From Candidatus Saccharimonadota bacterium (GTDB taxonomy: Bacteria > Patescibacteriota > Gracilibacteria > BD1-5 > UBA2023), in NCBI GenBank assembly GCA_046350815.1, contig JAXLZO010000001.1, positions 1,230,001 to 1,262,000 of the forward strand: 32,000 nt of DNA, in the 5' to 3' direction. Shown here piece by piece: positions 1,283 through 29,709 of this stretch. The position numbers and the translations under genes were made by a program. How positions within the stretch are numbered: the stretch's first letter is position 1; every line of letters starts with the position of its first letter. Under the pieces are notes generated by a model. That model did no database searches. It was not told where the DNA came from and worked only from the letters and a program-made list of their open reading frames with translations.

Positions 1283-3025
1283 TTATTGGATTATCGCAGA
1301 TAAAACCCCATCCGTTTCTGCTTCGAGAGCGAGTATATCTCTCGTGATGTCTTCGAGACTTCGAGGTGGAGTGTATTCGTAGAAGTATTTATTGAAGTTG
1401 ATCTCATATCCTACTTTTTTCTCCTTCTCGCTGATCCAAGCATCAGGAGCAAATGGGAGGACTTCTCGTGCGAAGTATTCCTGTATATCTTCTTTGAGTG
1501 GGATATTTTCCTTATCTCTCAGGTCTGCATCTGGTTCTGGTTTTCCTTTCTTTGTGATGATATTTCCATTCTCATCCCTCTTTGGTCGTTCGACGATGAT
1601 CTGAGTGTAGCCGAAGTCTTCATTATCAAATATCTTTGAGTATTCTGTTTCCTTGAATCCATCAAAAAGCTCATAAATTTTCTGGATTCCTGCATCTTTT
1701 ATCTCATTTCTCTTGCTTCCGAGACTCTTCGTCATCTTCGTGAAGAACTCACTACTTGTAGCATTGATGAGTTGGATTTTACCTTTCTTGTGAGTAGGTT
1801 TTCGGTTCGTCATTACCCAGATATATGTCCCAATTCCAGTATTATAGAAGAGTTCTTTTGGGAGAGCAATGATGGCTTCGAGATAGTCATTTTCGATTAT
1901 ATGTTTACGAATCTCACTCTCTCCGCTTCCTGCATCTCCTGTGAAGAGAGCAGAACCATTGTGTACTGAGGCGATACGAGTCCCGAGTGGTGTATCGTGT
2001 TTCATTTTCGAGAGCATATGAAGGACGAAGAGGAGCTGTCCATCATTGATACGAGGAGTACCTACAGAGAATCTCTGGTCGAGTATTTCCTTTTTCTTAC
2101 CTGTAGCGAGCTTATCTTCGTCAGTCTTCCAAGACTTTCCATAAGGAGGATTCGTGAGGATAAAATCAAATCTCTCATTAGGAAATCCATCAGCCGAGAG
2201 GGTTGAACCATAGGCAACTTTATTATCTCTTTCTCACTTGAGGAGCATATCAGCCTTACAGAGTGCGTATGTCTCAGGATTTACCTCTTGTCCGAATGTA
2301 AATATATTTCCACTTGATTGAATCTTGCTCTCATCTCACTGGATAAACTCTTTTGATACCGAGAGCATACCACCACTTCCTACACACGGATCATAGATAG
2401 TGATGGGCTTATCTTTAATCTGACTTTGTACAGGGAGGAAGAGTATATTTGTCATCAGACGGATTACCTCACGAGGAGTGAAGTGCTCTCAGGCTTCTTC
2501 ATTGTTTTCTTCATTGAACTTTCGGATCAGTTCTTCGAATACATATCCCATATCGTGATTGGAGAGATTTTTTGGAGAGAGCTTTTCACTTTCACCACTG
2601 AACTCTTGGATAAGTCGGAAGAGTATATCTGCTTCTTCGAGTGTCTGAATTTGATTCTCGAATTTGAATTTTTGAAGAATATCTTGGATATTTTGACTAT
2701 ATCCATTGATATACTGTTTAAAGTTTGCTCTAAGATTGATAGGATCATTGAGAAGTTTCTTGAGCGTAAAAGGAGAAGTATTATAAAAAGCGTATCCTGT
2801 AGCACGCTCCAGAATTGGCTCGATATTGGTGATCTTGTCTTTGAATTTTTCATACTCTGCAAGAACTTTTTCTTTTGTCTCGATAAGCTCACTATCTATG
2901 CGAGTGAGGACGGTCATAGGGAGGATAACATCTCGGTACTTTCCTTTCACATAGATATCTCGAAGGACATCATCAGCGATTTTCCAGATAAAATTGATGA
3001 TAACTGAGTTGTTCTGTTGAGTCAT
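1283..3025 (-). CDS. hsdM: type I restriction-modification system, N6-adenine DNA methyltransferase subunit M
   Basis: Track ORFs 2489..3025 and 1283..2017 share a frame, and the gap between them reads through TGA. It has an HsdM N-terminal domain (IWKIADDVLRD), AdoMet motif I (IYDPCVGSGGML) and motif IV (FILTNPPYGKSW). It is 580 aa and ends in TAA. Confidence 0.9.
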
Positions 3026-3291
3026 ATAGTGACAGTAAAGTTGAGGAAAACATTATGAAAATCAGTATATAGAAGATTAGATTTGCACCAAGTTTGAGGA
3101 TAATTTTCCCAAAACATTTTGATGTATAAATGAAGATTTCCCCATTATTGAATCAATCTTACTGTATTTGATAAACTCCCCAAGATCTAAAATCTCACGT
3201 GAATATTTCGTTCGAAACAAGTCCGCCAAGGACAGCCATTCTACAAATCATCTCACCAATTAAAAAGAACTTTCTTATAAGCTCTTTTTTG

Positions 3292-20342: not shown

Positions 20343-21062
20343 CTAATTATTTCCTCGTTCTATTTTGTTTACCTCTAATGAAAGAGTCATACTTTTTCCA
20401 GCAAGAGGATGTCAAGTAGGATAAGACACGGTAACATACTCTCATTCGATTTTATCAATGCGAATTTTTCATCCATTCCACTCCCCTTCAGATCAAACCT
20501 TCAAGACAGGGTCACGAAAAGGTGAGAGTGGATTTGAGATTCGGAGAGTAGCTTTTCCATCTTTTATTTTCATAACAAGCACATCAAATCAGTTTTTCGT
20601 CCCACGAGATCAGACACGAATTTTTTCATCAGAAAAAGTATAAGCACTTCCGCTCGCATTCAAAGATTCAAGAGAGACAGCCTCAGATATACTTGGGAGT
20701 ATCTGACTCAAACGCAGTATCTTTGTTTCGCGAACATCACCATATAATTTATCTGGTGAGAGTTTTATCTCTCTTTTTTCTCACTCTTTCATTCCGATAA
20801 GTGATTCATGAAGTCCAATAAATGGAAGTGATCAACTTCAAACGATGATAGTTTCTGTAAGGAGCTCTCATGTTTTTCACTCTTCAGATAGGGAATATGT
20901 AGTCAAAACTTGATCTCATGAATGAACTTTTGCAGGAATGTTTTCAGAGATAGTGACACTATCACGCTGATAGTAAGTCTGCCTATATACCATGAACATC
21001 CCTAGTAAAACGATCACAAAGATACATATGAGACTGATAACGGTGATCTTCTTTGTATTCAT
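20343..21062 (-). CDS. membrane-anchored FKBP-type peptidyl-prolyl isomerase (SlyD/FkpA-like), 239 aa
   Basis: The N-terminal anchor is MNTKKITVISLICIFVIVLLGMFMV. FKBP core blocks are IIV-G-S-G-SLPFIGLHESLIGMKE-G-EKREIKLSPDKLYG and the C-terminal -G-HPLAGKSMTLSLEV. I walked it codon by codon and found 12 in-frame TGA and no TAA or TAG until TAG at 20343. The ATG is 4 nt after the upstream gene's stop. Confidence 0.8.
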
Positions 21063-21066
21063 AGAA

Positions 21067-23388
21067 TTAATAAGGATTAGTAAAAGATGAAGTCGTTGTC
21101 GGTGCGCCACCAGCACCTCATGCATCTCCCCTACTATGAACAACAATACAAAATCTTCCACTCGGTGCTCTAAATTCACCACGAAGACAGGTGTCTCGAA
21201 GTGGGGTTGGAGTTATTGTTGGACTTGATGGCGGCGTATCTGAAGAGGCTGCACTACAATGAACTCGCTCAACTGAATTTGTATTACCAACGCAATACCA
21301 TGACCAACTCCTATAATAGAGTTGATTATTTACTGTTCGAAAATCTTGCACAGTATTTCCTTCAGCACAATTACCAACTGATGTAGCCGTTGCCGACTGT
21401 CCAGAACCGATTTCTCATATTCGGTAACCACATGCAGCAGCAATAACAATACCGGTACAACTACTATTACACGAGCCAGCTATTCCATTTTGCAATCCAT
21501 CATCACACACCTCTGTTCATCCGACCGTACCATCTCAACATTGATGAGTGGCGGATATTTTGATATGAACCGAAGAATCACCTAGTTGAAGTGGAAAAGT
21601 TGTATTATCATCAGCAATCTGGTAACAATTTAAAGTATGTATAATTTCTTTTGGATCTGGATCGATAGGCCATGATAAGGCATAATAAGTACCTCATCAA
21701 TTCGATTGACCATTGCAAATAAGGCTATCATCAGCCACATCTGATGTCCATAAAACATATGCATGTATGGGATCTAATGAATTTAATTCAGATTTAGTAA
21801 GGCTCTTATTTATTATAGGAATAGAATCATTGGGAAGTTTCGTCCATGATAATTCAGCGGTTCATAATTCATCTCTTGGTTTAGATAAATTATACGCGAC
21901 AGAATCCCGAGCAAACTTCACAGCAACTTCAATAGTAGGAGGCAAAAATACATATATATTTTTGGTTACAGTATGCTCACCATTGTTGACATCAATACAT
22001 GTAAAAACATAGGACTTCATTTGACCAATCTTATAATGACGAATCGGATCATACGATCGCTGAATCCATTCTGGTTTAACGGTAAAATTTGGATACTTAT
22101 CTTGAGGTACAAATCAACCTGTTGCCGTATAAAAAATATGTGTATCTGATGAGCTATTACCAGTCGTTTCATTCAGAGTTGTTGTGCATGATTTCATACC
22201 ATTGGCCAACAGGCTCACTTGTATTGGCTGACCACTCATAATTTTATCTCATCCAGCTGAAGTTTGCATAGTTACAGAAAGCTGTGTCCTAATATATAAA
22301 CTCACATATGCTTGAGATGATACAGTTCTTGTCTCTGATCCTATTCTTTGAGTATGAAAACATTCAAGAATATAATCTCTTCTTTTATCAGGAGTAACTT
22401 GTTCCATTCATATAGGTTGTTTGGATCCACTCCATCAGCCACCCGATGCTTCGCACGTATCTGCATTCGATGCCATCCATACCAATGTTCGGCTCTCTCA
22501 GAGATCCATCTCCGTACTCGTCGTACTTCATGTCATACCGAAGAGTATCGTGGGAGTAGTCGGATGGATAACTTCTATTTGCGGCGTACTTCGAACAATA
22601 CTATCTCCTTGTAGCGACGTGCAAGAGAGAGTGAAGTAGGTACTACTACGAAGTGGACTACTCGAATACGTACCTCCCGTAGCACTCACTGCTCAAGATG
22701 TATAACTTCCACTTCCTGTGATTCATGAACATGATCTCAGATTTGCACCAGTCCATGTAAGTGCAACAGTCTGACCAGAGAATATCTGCGTTGCCGAGAC
22801 CTCAAATGTTAGGGAAGGTGGTCATGGGATCATCTCTACACGAATAGTCCGATCTCCGGTATTCGTCCCATCCAATCATACGCAGCTCATAGTATACGTT
22901 TGAGAGATGTTGGATGTTACGGAAGGTACAACGATACTCATACTGCTTCTAACACGTAGCAGACTGCCAGAATTTGCACCCAAAGAACTTACATCCCAAT
23001 CCACACGACACGACCGAACATACTGTGGATTCCACGTGATCGTAAAAGTCTCACCTCAGCGAACCACACGGCTCGGATCGTTATCAAGACGGTTGCCATC
23101 GTTATCATTCGCCTGAAGTGTCAGTGTCGGAGAAGGTGGGGTCACCAAATTTTCAAACTTCTCACAAGCAGGCGTTCCATCATTCGAAAATCCCATCACC
23201 ACTCCACCCGTCGCACCCATAAGAGAATCACATGAAGAGTTTAAAATCTTCTGAAACTGAGAAACAATGGGATTTCACTGAATATTTGATCCAGTTGGAT
23301 AAGAGATTATCGGTGTTGCAAAAATTGCATTTGAATAAATCAAACTTATAAGAACTATCAATACTGATAAGGATAAATATTTATGCAT
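21067..23388 (-). CDS. secreted multidomain protein: Ig-like two-Cys repeats, CGDG/CDDG cysteine-rich repeat and a Pro/Thr/Gly-rich tail (773 aa)
   Basis: One frame is open from ATG at 23386-23388 to TAA at 21067-21069 with 19 TGA read as Gly. The hand translation gave exactly 773 aa and hits track ORF 21118..21351 in register. The signal peptide is MHKYLSLSVLIVLISLIYSNAIFA. Confidence 0.8.
21553..23139 (-). repeat. five tandem, divergent Ig-like domain repeats of about 90-125 aa (protein level) in the 773-aa protein
   Basis: A recurring pattern is P-x-L/I-T-F/L ... T/L-W ... N-x-x-S/T-C ... Y-x-L/M-S/E-C ... V-x-V/I. Examples are TITWNPQYVRSC...YTMSC, ALTWTGANLRSC...YFTLSC and LVWMASNADTCEASGGGWSG...YILEC. 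Two further copies occur in the upstream gene (aa 100-170 and 241-318). Confidence 0.6.
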
Positions 23389-23409: not shown

Positions 23410-25503
23410 TTATTTATTAATATAGTTAGGAAAAACATATTTATCAAATTGAGAAAGTGAATTTAAATCATACGTGCTTTTAACATAACCAGAAGATGGT
23501 CAATAAACAATTCAATTTCGAAACGATCCATGTGTGCTTGTTCAAAATGCATAGCTTCATATAGAAACAATACCATTTCAAAGATTAATAGATTGCAGTT
23601 TGTTTTCATAAAAAGCTCAATTTCAAATGGACTCAACCCCATTTGGAATTACTACTCATGTTAAGGAATTATTTGAGAATGCGGATTCACCAATATAACG
23701 AATATTATTTCATAATGAAAGTGATTCAAGTCAATTTCCATAGAATGTATATTTTGGAATAGTATATATGTTATCTGGAATATTTAGTGAGGATATGTTA
23801 TTCGCCATAAATGCTCAATCAGACAAAGTAATACTAGGTCGGCTTAAGAGAACTTGATCAACTGATTTAATATTATTCAACTTAAATGCATATTGCCTTA
23901 TCGTTAAAGGCACCAATGAAGGACGTATAATTAATGAAATATTGAATGACGAAGAAAATGCTCTTTCGTCAATGAGTTGGACATTAGTTCAAATAGTTAC
24001 TCATGAAAAATAATTAGCTGCAAACGCTTTTGTTCCGATATATTTAACACTATCTGGAATTACCAAATCTCAACTCAAATGTGCACCACGGAATGCTTCT
24101 TTTCAAATCCATACAAGACTAGATGGAAGAATGATCGAGTCAAATCATAAAAGGTCAGAAAAAGCATCATCTCCAATAGAAACAATTGGATATCACTCAA
24201 CTAACGATGGGAATCTAAGTGTTATGGATGATGCTCCACATAATAAATTCCCATATTGATTTTGTGGCGCAGAATCAATATGTACACCAATTGTTGAAGA
24301 AGACTTATTGATCCAATAAGAACTCCGACCATCAGTAGGGGAAATGTAATCAACAAAGCTATACGTAAAACATCGTGGATCAATAAAACTACACTGACCA
24401 TCATTACAACTGACCGTAGCACCACCTTGAGCATCATTTTGACATGTCAATCATCCATTTTGAGGTGTTGGATTCGTACAGGTACGAGTTTTGGTGCAAC
24501 TCGTCTGACATGCACCAAAACTTGACCAACCACCAGGAATAGGTGGAGGTGTCACAGTCACTGAAACACTTTTTTGCATTTGGCGACCAGCATCATCGGA
24601 ACAAGTGATACGATAGGTGGAAGTTGTTGTTGGATTGATCAAAGCAGATCATGAGGCACTTCCATTGACCGCAAAGGCATCACTCGTCGTACAGCTCGTG
24701 AGATTTCCAGCTTGCCATGCAAGTGTGACTGGATCTCATGGGGCAATATTTGATGGTGTGGCAGTAAAGTTAATATACGGATCACTGGAGCCAGGACAGC
24801 TACCTGCGGACATCAATGAACTCGCCACAACGCATTTTGGTTTACCATTTGCCTCAAAACCAACAATCACCTCATTGCTCGAGCATTTTCCTATTTCTCA
24901 TCCAAGATTCGAGAGATAGTTACCAAAAATTCCTCATGTAGATTCGCCACCTGGATTCATTGTAGGCCATACAATACCACCACCAATTGCTCAGATAGAT
25001 GCTGTGTTCATTGTCTGAGATACGGTTGATCCATCTGTACCAGAACAAGAGAGAGTATAGGAGCTACCATTCGCAGGAACATCAATACTTCATCCAGTAG
25101 CAGTCGTTGAAATGCCAGAGATAGAACACTGCGTGGTATTCTCAGATGACCAAATCAAACGAATTTTGGATGATACAGGACTACTACCAAATGTAAAATC
25201 AAGTTTTGGGTAAGAGTTAGTAGCTGGACATAGACCAAAATTTGCTACAGATATGAGTGAGTTTGCATTCGCACATTCCTTTATGCCCGTTGCTTTGTTA
25301 ATAGCGACAAGTACTTTATTTCCATCACATCTCCCGAGAAGATTCTGAAAATATGTCTTGAGTACACCACCAGGCACCTCTCAAGTGGGTGGATGGTTGG
25401 GCCATGAAGTACTCGCGGTTGCTGCAAATGCAATAATACTCATCATAAGGACGACAAGAAAAACGGTACTTATTCTTCCTATTATCTGAAAAAAACGCTT
25501 CAT
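23410..25503 (-). CDS. secreted protein: Ig-like domains, thrombospondin-type-1-like repeat and C-terminal BspA-type leucine-rich repeats (697 aa)
   Basis: One frame is open from ATG at 25501-25503 to TAA at 23410-23412 with 25 TGA read as Gly. It stays in register with track ORFs 25090..25377, 24451..24642 and 24193..24450. The signal peptide is MKRFFQIIGRISTVFLVVLMMSIIAFA. Confidence 0.8.
23509..24198 (-). repeat. BspA-type (LRR_5-like) leucine-rich repeat array
   Basis: Units of the form I-P-x-S-V-x-x-I-G-x-x-A-F recur. Examples are VIPDSVKYIGTKAFAANYFSGVTIGTNVQLIDERAF, NIPDNIYTIPKYTFYGNGLESLSLGNNIRYIGESAF and [37 protein letters not shown]. Most of the conserved IG glycines are TGA codons. 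Confidence 0.7.
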
Positions 25504-25564: not shown

Positions 25565-25593
25565 AAAAATACGTGGATATCCACGTATTTTTT
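25565..25593 (-). terminator. intrinsic terminator after rpoC
   Basis: The sequence aaaaatacgtgg-atat-ccacgtattttt forms a 12-bp stem with a 4-nt loop, 19 nt after the rpoC TAG. Confidence 0.85.
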
Positions 25594-25611: not shown

Positions 25612-28600
25612 CTAAAGGGAAATATATTCATCTTCACCTGCGTCATCAAATGCAGCAACTAATTCACCACTATCCAAATCATCATCACCTACCGATTCAA
25701 TCGCCATAGGACCGTCATAAACGGTTTCTGGAAGATAGTATGGAGTTTCCTCGAGATCTTCTTGACCAAAGTATTCACCGACATTTCGATTATTCTGAAA
25801 ATAATCAAGAGTTGGAATAAGTCGACCAATGATCACATTTTCTTTGAGACCTTCCAGTTTATCAATCTTTCGAGCTGTTGAAGCCTCAACCAACACACGA
25901 ACCGTTTCTTGGAACGATGCAGATGAGAGCCAACTTTCCGTAAAGAGAGAAATCTTCGTGAGACCAAGAAGAAGTCGAGTACCAATTGCCTGACGTTTCT
26001 CATCTTGCATGAGATTGTTGTTTTGTTTTTTGAACTCAATTACATCAACAATGTCACCAGGAAAGAATGTTGAATCACCAGCATTCGTAATCTTTACCTT
26101 TGAGAACATCTGACGAACAATGAGCTCAATATGCTTTGAATTTACCGTCTGACCCTGAGATGCATAGATCTCTTTGATGTCATTAACAATATAGAGTTCT
26201 GTCGAGAGAGGATCAGTAAGTTCCATGAGTCGCTGAAGGTTGATATGTCCTTCTGTCAGTTTGGATCCAACCTTTACGGATTCCCCTTCTTTCACAAGGA
26301 TAGAGCGAGATGCATCGATAGAATATTCGATCGTGCGAGGTGCCTCATCAACTATCACAATCGTATGCTTCGATACCTCTTGAATGATACCAGTATGCTC
26401 AGAGAGGAGTTTACCTTTATGTTCTGTAGATCGAGCAAGTGCTTGACGGGGGTCAATATGAGCTCATTTCTTCACAACAACTGAGTATGTATCATCAGGA
26501 ATATAATATTCATAACGATTCACTTCATCAGCCTTGATAGTCACAATAACAACCTGTCAATCATAGCGAAGTCCAACGACCTTTCCGGTCAACTCAGACA
26601 TAACCGCTTCACCCTTTGGTGCGCGTGCCTCAAGAAGTTCTTCTACACGAGTAAGACCCACCGTGATATCACCACCTTGTGTCGCAACTCAACCCGAATG
26701 GTATGTACGCATCGTGAGCTGTGTACCTGGCTCACCAATAGACTGAGCTGCAATAATACCTACTGGAGTACCCATGATCGCTCGAGCATTCGAAGAAAGA
26801 TCGAGACCATAACATTTTTGACATACACCCTCTGCCGTCTCACAAGTGAGAATCGATCGAACGTGTACCTCAGGGATCTCATGTTCGTTGAGTATAGCAA
26901 GAATTTCCTTCGTAACCAACTCCCCAGATGGAACAAGTACCTGTCCATGAAGCATAATATCACGAGCAACATGCTTTCCTTTGATTTTATCATCAAATGA
27001 TTCTCGGAACACAGATTTTGAGAGCTCTCGAGTTACTGTCTCATATTGGAGAGTTCCACAATCTTCTTCACGAATGAGAATATTTTGAGCAGCATCGACG
27101 AGACGACGTGTCAAATAACCAGATTGTGCTGTCTTGAGCGCCGTATCTGCCTTACCTTTACGACCGGAATGCGTATTGATAAAATACTCAAGCACTGAAA
27201 GACCTTCTTTATAGTTACCCTTAACTGGAAGCTCGATAGTTTTACCAGTTGGAGATGCTACCAATCATTTCATTCCACACATCTGAGCAACGTTACCCCA
27301 ATCTCAACGTGCACCAGAATCAATGAGATTGAAGATGGAGTTTTGTTGATTGAACGATGTTTTCATCTCAGCGGAAACCTGATTTTTTACGATATTCCAC
27401 ACCTTGATAGTCTGTTCATATCGTTCTTTGTCAGTCAGAAGACCATGCCAGTAAGCACGCTGAATAAGCTTGATTTTATCTTCCCCATGTCGTACAAGAT
27501 CATCTTTGTTTGCCGGAGTAAACATGTCAGATTTTGAGATTGAAAGACCAGAAACAGTTGCATATTTAAAGCCTGTATTCTTGATACGATCAGCAAAGAA
27601 TGCTGTCTCTTCGCCACCCTTAAGATCAAAAGATCGAGAGAGAAGTTTTTTAAGAGCTTTTTTATTGAGGGTCTCATTCACAAACCCAAGAATAGGATCA
27701 ACAACCTCATTGAACAAGACACGACCATATGTTGTCTCAAGAATCACACCTTCGATACGAATCTTGATAGGCATATGGAAGGTAATAACTCCGTTGTCAT
27801 ACGCCATGGTTGCATCTTCCTTGTTCGCAAAAACATGCTTTGCCTCCGTATCTTCATCCTTTCGAGTCAAATAGTAACACCCAAGTACCATATCCTGTGA
27901 AGGTGATACGATCGGTTCACCATTTGATGGATTGAGTATGTTCTTCGAAGTAACCATGAGTCGCGCTGCCTCCTCCTGTGCTTCATCAGTTATTGGTACA
28001 TGTACCGCCATCTGATCACCATCAAAATCGGCATTAAACGCACCACAACAAAGTGGATGAAGTTGAATTGCTTTTCCTTCGATGAGCCGTGGACGGAAAG
28101 CTTGAATACCAAGACGATGAAGTGTCGGAGCACGATTGAGAAGTACATGTTTACTTTTAATTACCTCATCAAGTGCATCCCACACCTCTCGTCCACCATC
28201 TTCGATAATTTTCTCGGCCATTTTCGGGGTAAATGCAACTTCATCTTCGATAAGTTTTCCGATAACAAAAGGCTTGAAGAGCGTGAGTGCCATAGATTTT
28301 GGCAATCCACATTCGTTCATCTTAAGTGTTGGACCTACGACGATTACTGAACGACCAGAGTAGTCAACTCGCTTACCGAGAAGGTTCTGGCGGAATCGAC
28401 CTTGTTTTCCCTTGAGAATATCTGCGAGGGATTTGAGCTTCTTACGATTTGCTGCAGTGTAACCTGGACGATTTGAGCGAACATCACCACTAATAAGTGT
28501 ATCAATAGACTCCTGAAGCATACGCTTCTCATTCTTGAGAATCACATCCGGAGCACCAAGTTGAGTTAGTTTTCTCAGACGATTGTTTCGATTGATAACG

Positions 28601-29688
28601 CGACGATAGAGATCATTGAGATCAGACGAAGCATATCGTCCACCATCAAGCTGAATCATTGGTCGAAGATCCGGCGGAAGAATTTGGAGTGCTTCAAGGA
28701 TAAACTGTCCTGGTTTTTGATCAGATTTAAAGAGAGAAGATGCAAGCTTCAATTTTTGAAGAATTTTCTTCTGACGAGATTTTGGAGCAGCCTTAAGTTC
28801 TGCTTGGTTTTCCGCTATGAAAGCACGAAGATCAATGCGATCAAGGAGAATCTTGATATACTCAGCACCCGTTCCACCCTTGAATACATGAGGGAACTTA
28901 TCATAGAGATGACGATAGTCCAATTCACCAATGACGACCGCTGGAGCGAGATCTTTAAGGAGTGTTTTAAGACCTTGATACTCTGCTTCAAGTACATCGA
29001 GTTGAGACATGAGACCAGCCTCAACTTCTGAGAACATCTTCTTTGTAATCGCTTTTTCCTCGAGTTTGAGTTTTGCCTCAGAGAGAGATGATTGGATTTT
29101 TCTCTGGAGCTCCGTCTTGTGAGTTTTATAGGCATTATCCAAATTTGAAAGAGCCTCATCACGCTTATCCTCATAAACATCAGTGATGATATAGCTCGCA
29201 AAATAGACAACTTGGTCGAGCTTCTTTGCAGAAACATCAAGAAGAAGGCCAATACGTGAAGGAACGGATTTGAGATACCAAATATGGACAACTGGAGCCG
29301 CAAGTTCAATATGACCAGTTCGTTGGCGTCGCACTTGTGATGTCGTAACCTCTACTCCACAACGCTCACAAATCACACCCTTATATCGAATACGCTTGTA
29401 TTTACCACAAGCACATTCGTAATTCTTGCGAGGACCAAAAATTTGTTCACAGAAGAGACCACCACGTTCAGGTCTTTGAGTACGATAGTTGATCGTCTCA
29501 GAGATGAGAACTTCACCATAGGAAAGGGAGCGAACTTCTTCTTTTGAAGAGAGCCCAATCGCAATACCCACAAGATTATCAAGAGTTTTACCTGCAGTAA
29601 TATCCTTCTTACCAGCATTTTTTCCAATCTGTGTATAATCGGTGATTTTATCATTGAGGAGATTCTCGAGAAGCTTATCAGAAAACAT
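25612..29688 (-). CDS. rpoC: DNA-directed RNA polymerase subunit beta-prime (1358 aa)
   Basis: Track ORFs 27304..29688, 26689..27264 and 25612..26358 share a frame. Recognisable blocks are the zinc-binding element [23 protein letters not shown], the catalytic [18 protein letters not shown]- (TGA at 27304), GMK-G-L (TGA at 27265) and YHSG-G-VA (TGA at 26689). It ends in TAG at 25612. Confidence 0.97.
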
Positions 29689-29709
29689 AGATTTTGAGAA
29701 ATGAGAAAA

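Follow-up and report, generated by a model that had tools for sequence, protein, structure and literature searches.

A short-form thrombospondin type-1 repeat as the probable neck of a strain-variable secreted protein in a UGA-recoded Patescibacteriota genome

Introduction

The thrombospondin type-1 repeat (TSR) is an elongated, disulfide-stapled rod whose termini lie at opposite ends, and the paper on structure 1LSL is said to pair the six cysteines of the TSP-1 group as C1-C5, C2-C6 and C3-C4. Animals and apicomplexans are the groups in which TSRs are most familiar (PMC3417536). Here we describe a TSR encoded in a 32,000-nucleotide stretch of bacterial DNA (positions 1,230,001 to 1,262,000 of contig JAXLZO010000001.1, assembly GCA_046350815.1, Candidatus Saccharimonadota bacterium; hereafter the window). 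The module occupies residues 326–371 of a 697-residue secreted protein that ends in leucine-rich repeats (LRRs), and the gene is a neighbor of rpoC. An original prediction, made from the letters alone, had read a six-cysteine TSR pattern at this place.

The best match to the module in the Protein Data Bank (PDB) is the second TSR of the UNC5 receptors (PDB 6OOL, 4V2A). The two share W-S-x-W/F-x-A-C-x-x-x-C-(short)-R-x-C-x-x-P-x-P-x-N-G-G-x-x-C, both lack the C-G-G-G turn, and only a 2-residue gap separates them. UNC5 is an animal receptor with an Ig-Ig-TSR-TSR ectodomain, and the bacterial module is two residues shorter still in strand B and about four residues longer between Cys4 and Cys5. 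Repeats TSR2 and TSR3 of thrombospondin-1 (TSP-1; PDB 1LSL, 3R6B, 7YYK) have the same cysteine order, strand-A Trp, strand-B Arg and C-x-x-P-x-P-x-x-G-G-x-x-C core. The canonical TSP-1 repeat carries W-x-x-W-x-x-W, C-G-G-G and R-x-R, in contrast to the W-x-x-F, missing G-G-G and K-x-R of the window copy, which scores below the Pfam threshold. Bacteria are not expected to possess the machinery that eukaryotes use for C-mannosylation and O-fucosylation.

Among bacterial proteins, those with BspA-type LRRs (LRR_5, PF13306), which in oral bacteria bind host matrix proteins, resemble the C-terminal ~250 residues of the window protein. We know of no TSR in the classical BspA architecture, and at the locus described here the LRR block is exchangeable. 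The bacterial thrombospondin type-3 repeats (TSP3_bac) have only the name in common with the module, being calcium-binding, Asp-rich and unrelated to the Cys-rich, three-stranded type-1 fold. A literature search found no paper on prokaryotic type-1 TSRs; for bacteria, only type-3 repeats were mentioned.

Results and discussion

The module is a TSR with a short B strand

In the reading frame that opens with the ATG at 25503, the minus strand encodes the module as WSSFGACQTSCTKTRTCTNPTPQNG and LTCQNDAQGGATVSCNDGQC on either side of an in-frame TGA, and both the numbering and the residues of the six-cysteine pattern read earlier are correct for this frame. Read on the plus strand, the same interval yields a meaningless peptide, and that reading was ruled out. 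The cysteines are residues 332, 336, 342, 354, 366 and 371 (codons at 24508, 24496, 24478, 24442, 24406 and 24391). Strand A contributes W326 (TGG, 24526–24528) and F329, strand B contributes K338 and R340, and P345-x-P347 and G350-G351 follow. The six cysteines, P345, P347 and G350-G351 all fall in invariant columns of an alignment of 26 TSRs.

Comparisons with known structures lead to TSR proteins throughout. A phmmer search of the PDB with a 64-residue segment returned 24 chains, all of them from TSR proteins (UNC5A/B/D, thrombospondin-1, C6–C8, properdin and ADAMTS; UNC5B at E 6.8e-7), and a profile of the six-module family returned 19 matches, again all TSR proteins, with E-values down to 5e-12 (4e-11 for the TSP-1 TSRs). 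When the profile was limited to the five short-form modules, it matched only UNC5 and TSP-1, the best domain being TSR2 of UNC5B (i-E 5e-5), and hhalign aligned this short-form profile with 17 canonical TSRs at a probability of 99.3% and E 3e-20. A hidden Markov model (HMM) made from 24 TSRs that do not belong to the family gave the window module 48.7 bits, a score that is somewhat inflated because the comparison sets were gathered by similarity to the window family; the highest scores of shuffled controls were 14.7 bits among 2000 full shuffles and 15.9 bits among 2000 shuffles that preserved the cysteine positions. Run over the six code-25 frames of the window, the non-family TSR model found one match, 24388–24537 on the minus strand (42.9 bits, E 1e-12), and the next best frame match reached 6 bits. 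The module is 36–40% identical to the TSRs of UNC5, TSP-1 and properdin.

Close relatives show what sets the window copy apart from a canonical repeat. The modules of database proteins P0005 and P0006, which lie at the same position, reach 25.5 and 33.2 bits against Pfam TSP_1 (PF00090) when TGA is read as Gly, above the gathering threshold of 21.6 bits. They are three residues longer after Cys2 than the window copy, and their source DNA reads C-TGA-G-TGA-IQTRSC and C-TGA-GGFQTRQC, the canonical C-G-G-G-x-Q-T-R-x-C. With G-G-G re-inserted, the window copy scores 22.5 bits and passes the threshold; we therefore attribute its failure on TSP_1 to this one three-residue deletion. The shortening of the central strand that had been noticed from the letters is thus the three-residue gap relative to the sister-allele strand B, C-G-G-G-x-Q-T-R-x-C, and from Cys4 to Cys5 the window copy is longer by about four residues. 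The short form (WSNYGSCQTSCTQTRTCTAPTPLNGGADC...), with its W, six cysteines, T-R-T-C, P-x-P and GG, recurs in protein P0018, whose overall identity is only 49% and which also has an LRR_5 head and the C-terminal tail of the window protein. Because the short form persists at this degree of divergence, we take it to be a maintained variant rather than a decaying remnant.

Several points weigh against this identification, or against the role proposed below, and they add to the inflation of scores already mentioned. The test suggested with the original prediction, a search of the table-25 translation with TSP_1, finds no match to the window copy, an outcome that the prediction had named as counting against it. 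On the related family TSP1_spondin, this copy reaches 10–13 bits against a threshold of 41, and the short module of P0018 has no Pfam match. Both ladders are reduced, with W326-x-x-F329 in place of W-x-x-W and K338-x-R340 in place of R-x-R, which leaves one Trp and one Arg, although the residues are still aromatic and basic. A single-sequence AlphaFold2 (AF2) model of residues 239–444 has a pLDDT of 48.9 overall and of ~40–47 over the module, where it is uninformative; the second Ig-like domain is the only part of that model above 70. The better model was built on the alignment of 26 TSRs and is biased towards the TSR fold by it: mean pLDDT is 70 (75–80 over residues 1–40), and the 38 matches that Foldseek finds for it in the PDB are all TSR structures (38/38; probability up to 0.99, and 0.95–0.98 for the TSP-1 TSRs), at TM-scores of 0.43–0.54 and with no E-value reaching 1e-3. 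We regard the predicted fold as compatible with a TSR, consistent with that assignment and not decisive for it. Finally, the roles of neck, recombination junction and adhesin are proposed on the basis of domain layout and comparison among relatives.

No homologue of the 64-residue module turned up in a word-indexed search. Pfam matches to Haemadin and DUF5885 were rejected as sub-threshold hits on Cys-rich sequence.

Taken together, the passing scores of the sister alleles, the hhalign probability and the uniform PDB matches uphold the TSR identity first proposed. We conclude from these comparisons that the module is a homologous TSR with a short B strand and reduced ladders. The convergent origin that had also been entertained is unsupported: the likeness is a statistically significant homology, and on the alignments convergence is not tenable as its source.

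UGA is read as glycine

The gene contains 26 in-frame TGA codons, read as Gly, between its ATG and a TAA stop at 23410–23412; the TGA-tolerant open reading frame (ORF) that encloses it runs from 25611 to 23410. Database protein P0001, a Gly-decoded code-25 call on a 1.28-Mb contig, is the same 697 residues at 100% identity. Calibration comes from the adjacent genes. In the translations of rpoC and rpoB, the few in-frame TGA codons lie in the motifs SGARxDWGN, MCGMKxLVA and TYHSGxVA, at positions that are conserved glycines in RpoC orthologues. The genome therefore decodes UGA as Gly, following code 25 like the Gracilibacteria and Absconditabacteria. The window contains no tRNA gene, and hence no tRNA-Gly(UCA).

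The same calibration bears out the claim that the second Gly of the GG pair is a UGA codon. The column of Gly351 is an invariant Gly across the 26 aligned TSRs, and in sister allele L001 the position is an ordinary GGN codon. Within the TSRs of the window family, TGA=Gly codons occupy conserved Gly positions in the window copy and in the DNA of P0005 and P0006. Recoded codons inside the repeat exclude contamination with eukaryotic DNA, and their placement argues for long residence of the TSR in the recoded lineage.

Decoding also affects detection. With the window TGA read as Trp, even the weak TSP1_spondin match vanishes, and Trp-decoded calls suppress TSP_1 in the sister alleles as well (no match for P0005 and 17 bits for P0006, versus 25.5 and 33.2 bits with Gly). 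The public calls for P0002–P0006 and P0018 decode TGA as Trp (code 4), which places spurious Trp residues at conserved Gly positions, for example CWGWIQTRSC.

One conserved stalk and at least four heads

The N-terminus of the window protein resembles a signal peptide of the Sec pathway or a signal anchor. It is followed by a stalk of two units, each a two-Cys loop module (aa 33–80 and 185–232) and an Ig-like domain (aa ~96–176 and about 240–323), as the alignment of the module repeat indicates. After the TSR, a short Cys-containing linker leads to the LRR block, which passes Pfam LRR_5 in two stretches (139.3 bits, E 8.2e-41; gathering threshold 27.7), in agreement with the BspA-type fusion reported from the sequence alone. 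A protein search with aa 1–385 was dominated by the second Ig-like domain (3630 matches at E<=1e-3, in multi-repeat proteins); its informative matches were P0018, P0070, P0081 and a few others.

The close relatives P0002–P0006 (76–85% identity by BLASTP over the covered part of the query) carry the module at the same position, and the six close proteins have their N-terminal ~325–370 residues in common before continuing into unrelated C-termini. The window protein and P0018 end in the LRR_5 head, P0002 in an uncharacterised domain of ~200 residues, P0003 and P0004 (27% identical to each other) in DUF4215-like Cys repeats plus an uncharacterised domain, and P0005 and P0006 (70% identical) in an uncharacterised domain of ~350 residues. 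Of the six closest relatives, then, P0018 has the LRR head and the other five (P0002–P0006) lack it.

The corresponding DNA shows where the alleles part. The locus is syntenic, with rpoB and rpoC upstream in L012 and the end of rpoC in L016, L017 and L001; the L002 contig starts only 15 nt before the position of the ATG in the window gene. DNA identity to the window is 86–92% in the stalk and flanks of these five near alleles. The points at which homology stops cluster at the two edges of the TSR, and in the three contigs long enough to show it, the alignment picks up again within the 5' end of the downstream gene (Table 1). On these alignments, everything between the TSR and the start of that gene is therefore an exchangeable cassette with at least four unrelated heads, and the TSR itself either stays on the stalk or is exchanged together with the head. 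A tblastn search with code 25 found no silent copies of the alternative heads in the window.

Similar C-terminal tails recur on unrelated heads: FPNYINK in the window protein (23413–23430, minus strand), FPHYVNQ in P0018, and VDYINN and VDYINY in P0005 and P0006. These tails may be a shared sorting or anchoring signal.

A proposed neck between stalk and head

Since at least four heads, the LRR block among them, alternate at this locus, the likely role of the TSR shifts from that of the adhesion module itself, as first suggested, towards that of a neck or junction in a variable adhesin. We propose, with a probability of roughly 0.8 for the reading as a whole, that the short-form TSR is genuine and is the rigid neck of a strain-variable adhesin, set between a conserved stalk and an exchangeable head. 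Export by Sec would present, in order, the signal peptide or anchor, the two units of Cys-loop module and Ig-like domain, the TSR and the C-terminal head. The TSR would fold as a three-stranded, elongated rod held by three disulfides, with W326 and F329 stacking with K338 and R340 and the termini at opposite ends. Such a rod would serve as a rigid neck that projects the exchangeable ligand-binding head off the Ig-like stalk. As a conserved island between the two, the TSR could also provide the homology for recombinational head swapping. The whole protein would then be a strain-variable adhesin or recognition protein through which an epibiotic or host-dependent cell attaches to partner cells or surfaces. 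It is also possible that a basic groove, formed by the K/R-aromatic face of the repeat, adds affinity for anionic glycans, as in eukaryotic TSRs.

The adhesin proposal fits what is reported of code-25 candidate phyla radiation (CPR) bacteria, which live as epibionts or predators and whose elaborate surfaces are thought to mediate host attachment (PMC8080830, PMC6851277). The domain family is already known, and the window copy is a short variant of it that standard Pfam annotation misses. What is new here is a locus adjacent to rpoBC at which one conserved stalk carries at least four interchangeable heads among closely related strains. This head-swapping locus is a concrete candidate for what determines how an uncultivated lineage that depends on a host recognises that host or its substrate.

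TSRs in other prokaryotes and the origin of the module

We scanned one genome per species of GTDB with two narrow peptide patterns derived from the window family and obtained nine loci. Minisyncoccia, Paceibacterota, another Patescibacteria metagenome-assembled genome (MAG), a Nanoarchaeota MAG and an Oscillospiraceae MAG account for one each, two lie on separate contigs of one Bacteriovoracaceae MAG, and two are in Gammaproteobacteria MAGs. Identity to the family TSR is 47–58% for the Gammaproteobacteria, Minisyncoccia, Nanoarchaeota and Paceibacterota loci and 36–40% for the other four (Bacteriovoracaceae, L009 and Oscillospiraceae). Of seven ORFs tested from this set, five pass Pfam TSP_1. 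They come from other Patescibacteria, Bacteriovoracaceae, Gammaproteobacteria and Oscillospiraceae MAGs; the rarity of bacterial TSRs implied by the original prediction was therefore overstated. At these loci the TSRs are partnered with InlB B-repeat/Flg_new domains, a subtilase of family S8 with CBM60, fn3 and PKD.

The prokaryotic TSP_1 proteins (among them L007 of Paceibacterota, L005 of Minisyncoccia, L008 and L010 of Bacteriovoracaceae, L003 of a Gammaproteobacteria MAG, and P0081) share with the window family a short A strand with two aromatic residues, W-S-x-W-x-x-C, and, like the window protein, they are secreted surface proteins that combine TSRs with Ig-like, PKD, fn3 or InlB-repeat domains. 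They differ in having TSRs of canonical length, often in tandem arrays of 3 to 17, whereas the window family has a single TSR, short in most alleles, partly encoded with TGA=Gly and placed at the junction of stalk and head. In P0081 (1392 aa), a regular expression finds ~17 tandem TSR motifs, and the N-terminus reads like that of a type-IV pilin. Type-1 TSR arrays on bacterial surface or pilus proteins appear to be undescribed.

Two further observations concern these loci. Read by eye in translation, the Bacteriovoracaceae proteins L008:3088-5511 and L010:2267-11713 contain ~13 and 4 TSR-like repeats. In the Nanoarchaeota MAG, L006:5029-5151 (JBFYLR010000019.1) encodes a TSR-like module, WSAWSAWSTCTNNLQTRTRTCTNPTPQCGGAAC, within a 692-residue Cys-rich DPANN protein that has no Pfam match at E 1e-3.

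One could suppose that an animal or protist host was the fairly recent source of the TSR and that, as eukaryote-derived mimicry, the repeat works with the BspA-like LRRs to bind host matrix or receptors. The taxa in which TSRs are best known, the 36–40% identity of the module to the UNC5, TSP-1 and properdin repeats and the matrix binding by BspA-type LRR proteins of oral bacteria would all suit such an origin. We consider it unlikely, because the nearest TSRs found are prokaryotic, at 47–58% identity in Patescibacteria, Nanoarchaeota and Gammaproteobacteria MAGs, because prokaryotic TSRs are combined with partners that are usual for bacterial proteins (InlB B-repeat, CBM60-bearing subtilase, fn3, PKD and a pilin-like N-terminus), and because a TGA=Gly codon at a conserved Gly argues for a long stay in a recoded genome.

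A wider conjecture, which we put forward tentatively and hold to be improbable, is that the type-1 TSR is a widespread, undescribed module of prokaryotic cell-cell attachment, favored by surface-attached, host-dependent or predatory microbes (CPR/Patescibacteria, DPANN, Bacteriovoracaceae and pilin-borne arrays). In the code-25 family it would have been co-opted as a joint for recombinational head exchange that switches host or substrate specificity, and the eukaryotic TSR could share ancestry with, or derive from, this prokaryotic pool, in which case a transfer from eukaryotes into prokaryotes would not be required.

Toxin delivery and chance resemblance as unlikely readings

Polymorphic toxin loci combine a conserved N-terminus with C-termini that bear no relation to one another, the change coming abruptly at a conserved motif, and the window family shows all three features. 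Its conserved N-terminus might accordingly deliver variable C-terminal effectors or toxins, with the TSR as a pre-toxin linker at the point of exchange. We find this quite unlikely. The window head is an LRR solenoid, a binding fold rather than an enzyme, and no toxin family was matched by Pfam in any allele at E up to 1. In place of a small immunity-like gene, the neighbor ~20 nt downstream is a conserved secreted paralogue of 773 residues, and the window holds no silent cassettes.

It is very improbable that the module owes its Cys-rich motif to chance or convergence, or that it is the remnant of a TSR that has lost the fold, its B strand destroyed by the deletion and just a disulfide-rich linker left: the window copy and P0018 do fail TSP_1, the ladder residues are reduced and pLDDT is low without an alignment, but shuffles with fixed cysteines reach at most 15.9 bits against the 48.7 observed, hhalign gives 99.3% to canonical TSRs, all diagnostic residues are kept between proteins only 49% identical, and the UNC5 TSR2 structures have a B strand just two residues longer.

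Features of the locus and its neighbors

The coordinates of the gene, its parts, the breakpoints and the flanking genes are collected in Table 1.

Table 1. Features of the TSR gene and its surroundings in the window (coordinates count from the first letter of the window; aa, residues of the 697-residue protein).
Feature	Position	Strand	Basis or remark
Whole gene, 697-aa secreted protein	23410..25503	-	ORF and code-25 translation
Putative signal peptide or signal anchor, aa 1-28, MKRFFQIIGRISTVFLVVLMMSIIAFA/AT	25420..25503	-	Read from sequence: basic n-region, 17-residue hydrophobic core, AFA motif
Conserved stalk, aa 33-321	24541..25407	-	Two units of Cys-loop module and Ig-like domain
Short-form TSR, aa 326-371	24391..24528	-	
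TGA codon of Gly351, second Gly of the GG pair	24451..24453	-	Codon-level reading
BspA-type LRR head, aa ~437-690	23434..24195	-	Pfam LRR_5 (PF13306)
Breakpoint zone at F329-Cys332 (Cys1) codons	24508..24519	-	
Homology stop, L002	24517		blastn; F329-Cys332 codons
Homology stop, L001	24508		blastn; F329-Cys332 codons
Breakpoint zone between Cys366 (Cys5) and Cys371 (Cys6) codons	24397..24408	-	
Homology stop, L016	24407		blastn; between Cys366 and Cys371 codons
Homology stop, L012 and L017	24397		blastn; between Cys366 and Cys371 codons
Homology resumes inside 5' end of downstream gene	23227..23320	-	L002 at 23320, L017 at 23257, L016 at 23227
Downstream gene, 773-aa paralogous secreted Cys-rich protein	21067-23388	-	Begins ~20 nt after the TSR gene
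Terminator-like hairpin after rpoC, upstream of the TSR gene	25565..25592	-	12-bp stem and T-rich tail
rpoC, conserved upstream flank	25612..29709	-	Translation; Pfam RNA_pol_Rpb1 domains on the L012 equivalent
rpoB	29710 to window end	-	Translation

The hairpin between rpoC and the TSR gene recurs in L012 as a conserved inverted match (blastn), and the TSR gene is probably transcribed as a unit by itself. On the other side, the downstream protein shares the N-terminal Cys-loop module and contains Ig-like repeats and, below threshold, a DUF4215-like Cys repeat (E 0.012). Its gene is conserved between strains but contains non-aligning blocks at ~21675–21920 and, in L002, at 21015–21497, and it may be strain-variable as well.

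The Cys-loop module of ~48 residues, W/Y-P...G...C...V-x-G-F...G-x-P-x-C, occurs at 25264–25407 and 24808–24951 on the minus strand and again at aa 25–86 of the downstream gene; no Pfam family matched it. Farther away in the window, a 580-residue ORF at 1283–3052 (minus strand) contains, as read from its translation, LTNPPYGKSW, motif IV of N6-adenine methyltransferases, and its product looks like the HsdM subunit of a type I restriction-modification system.

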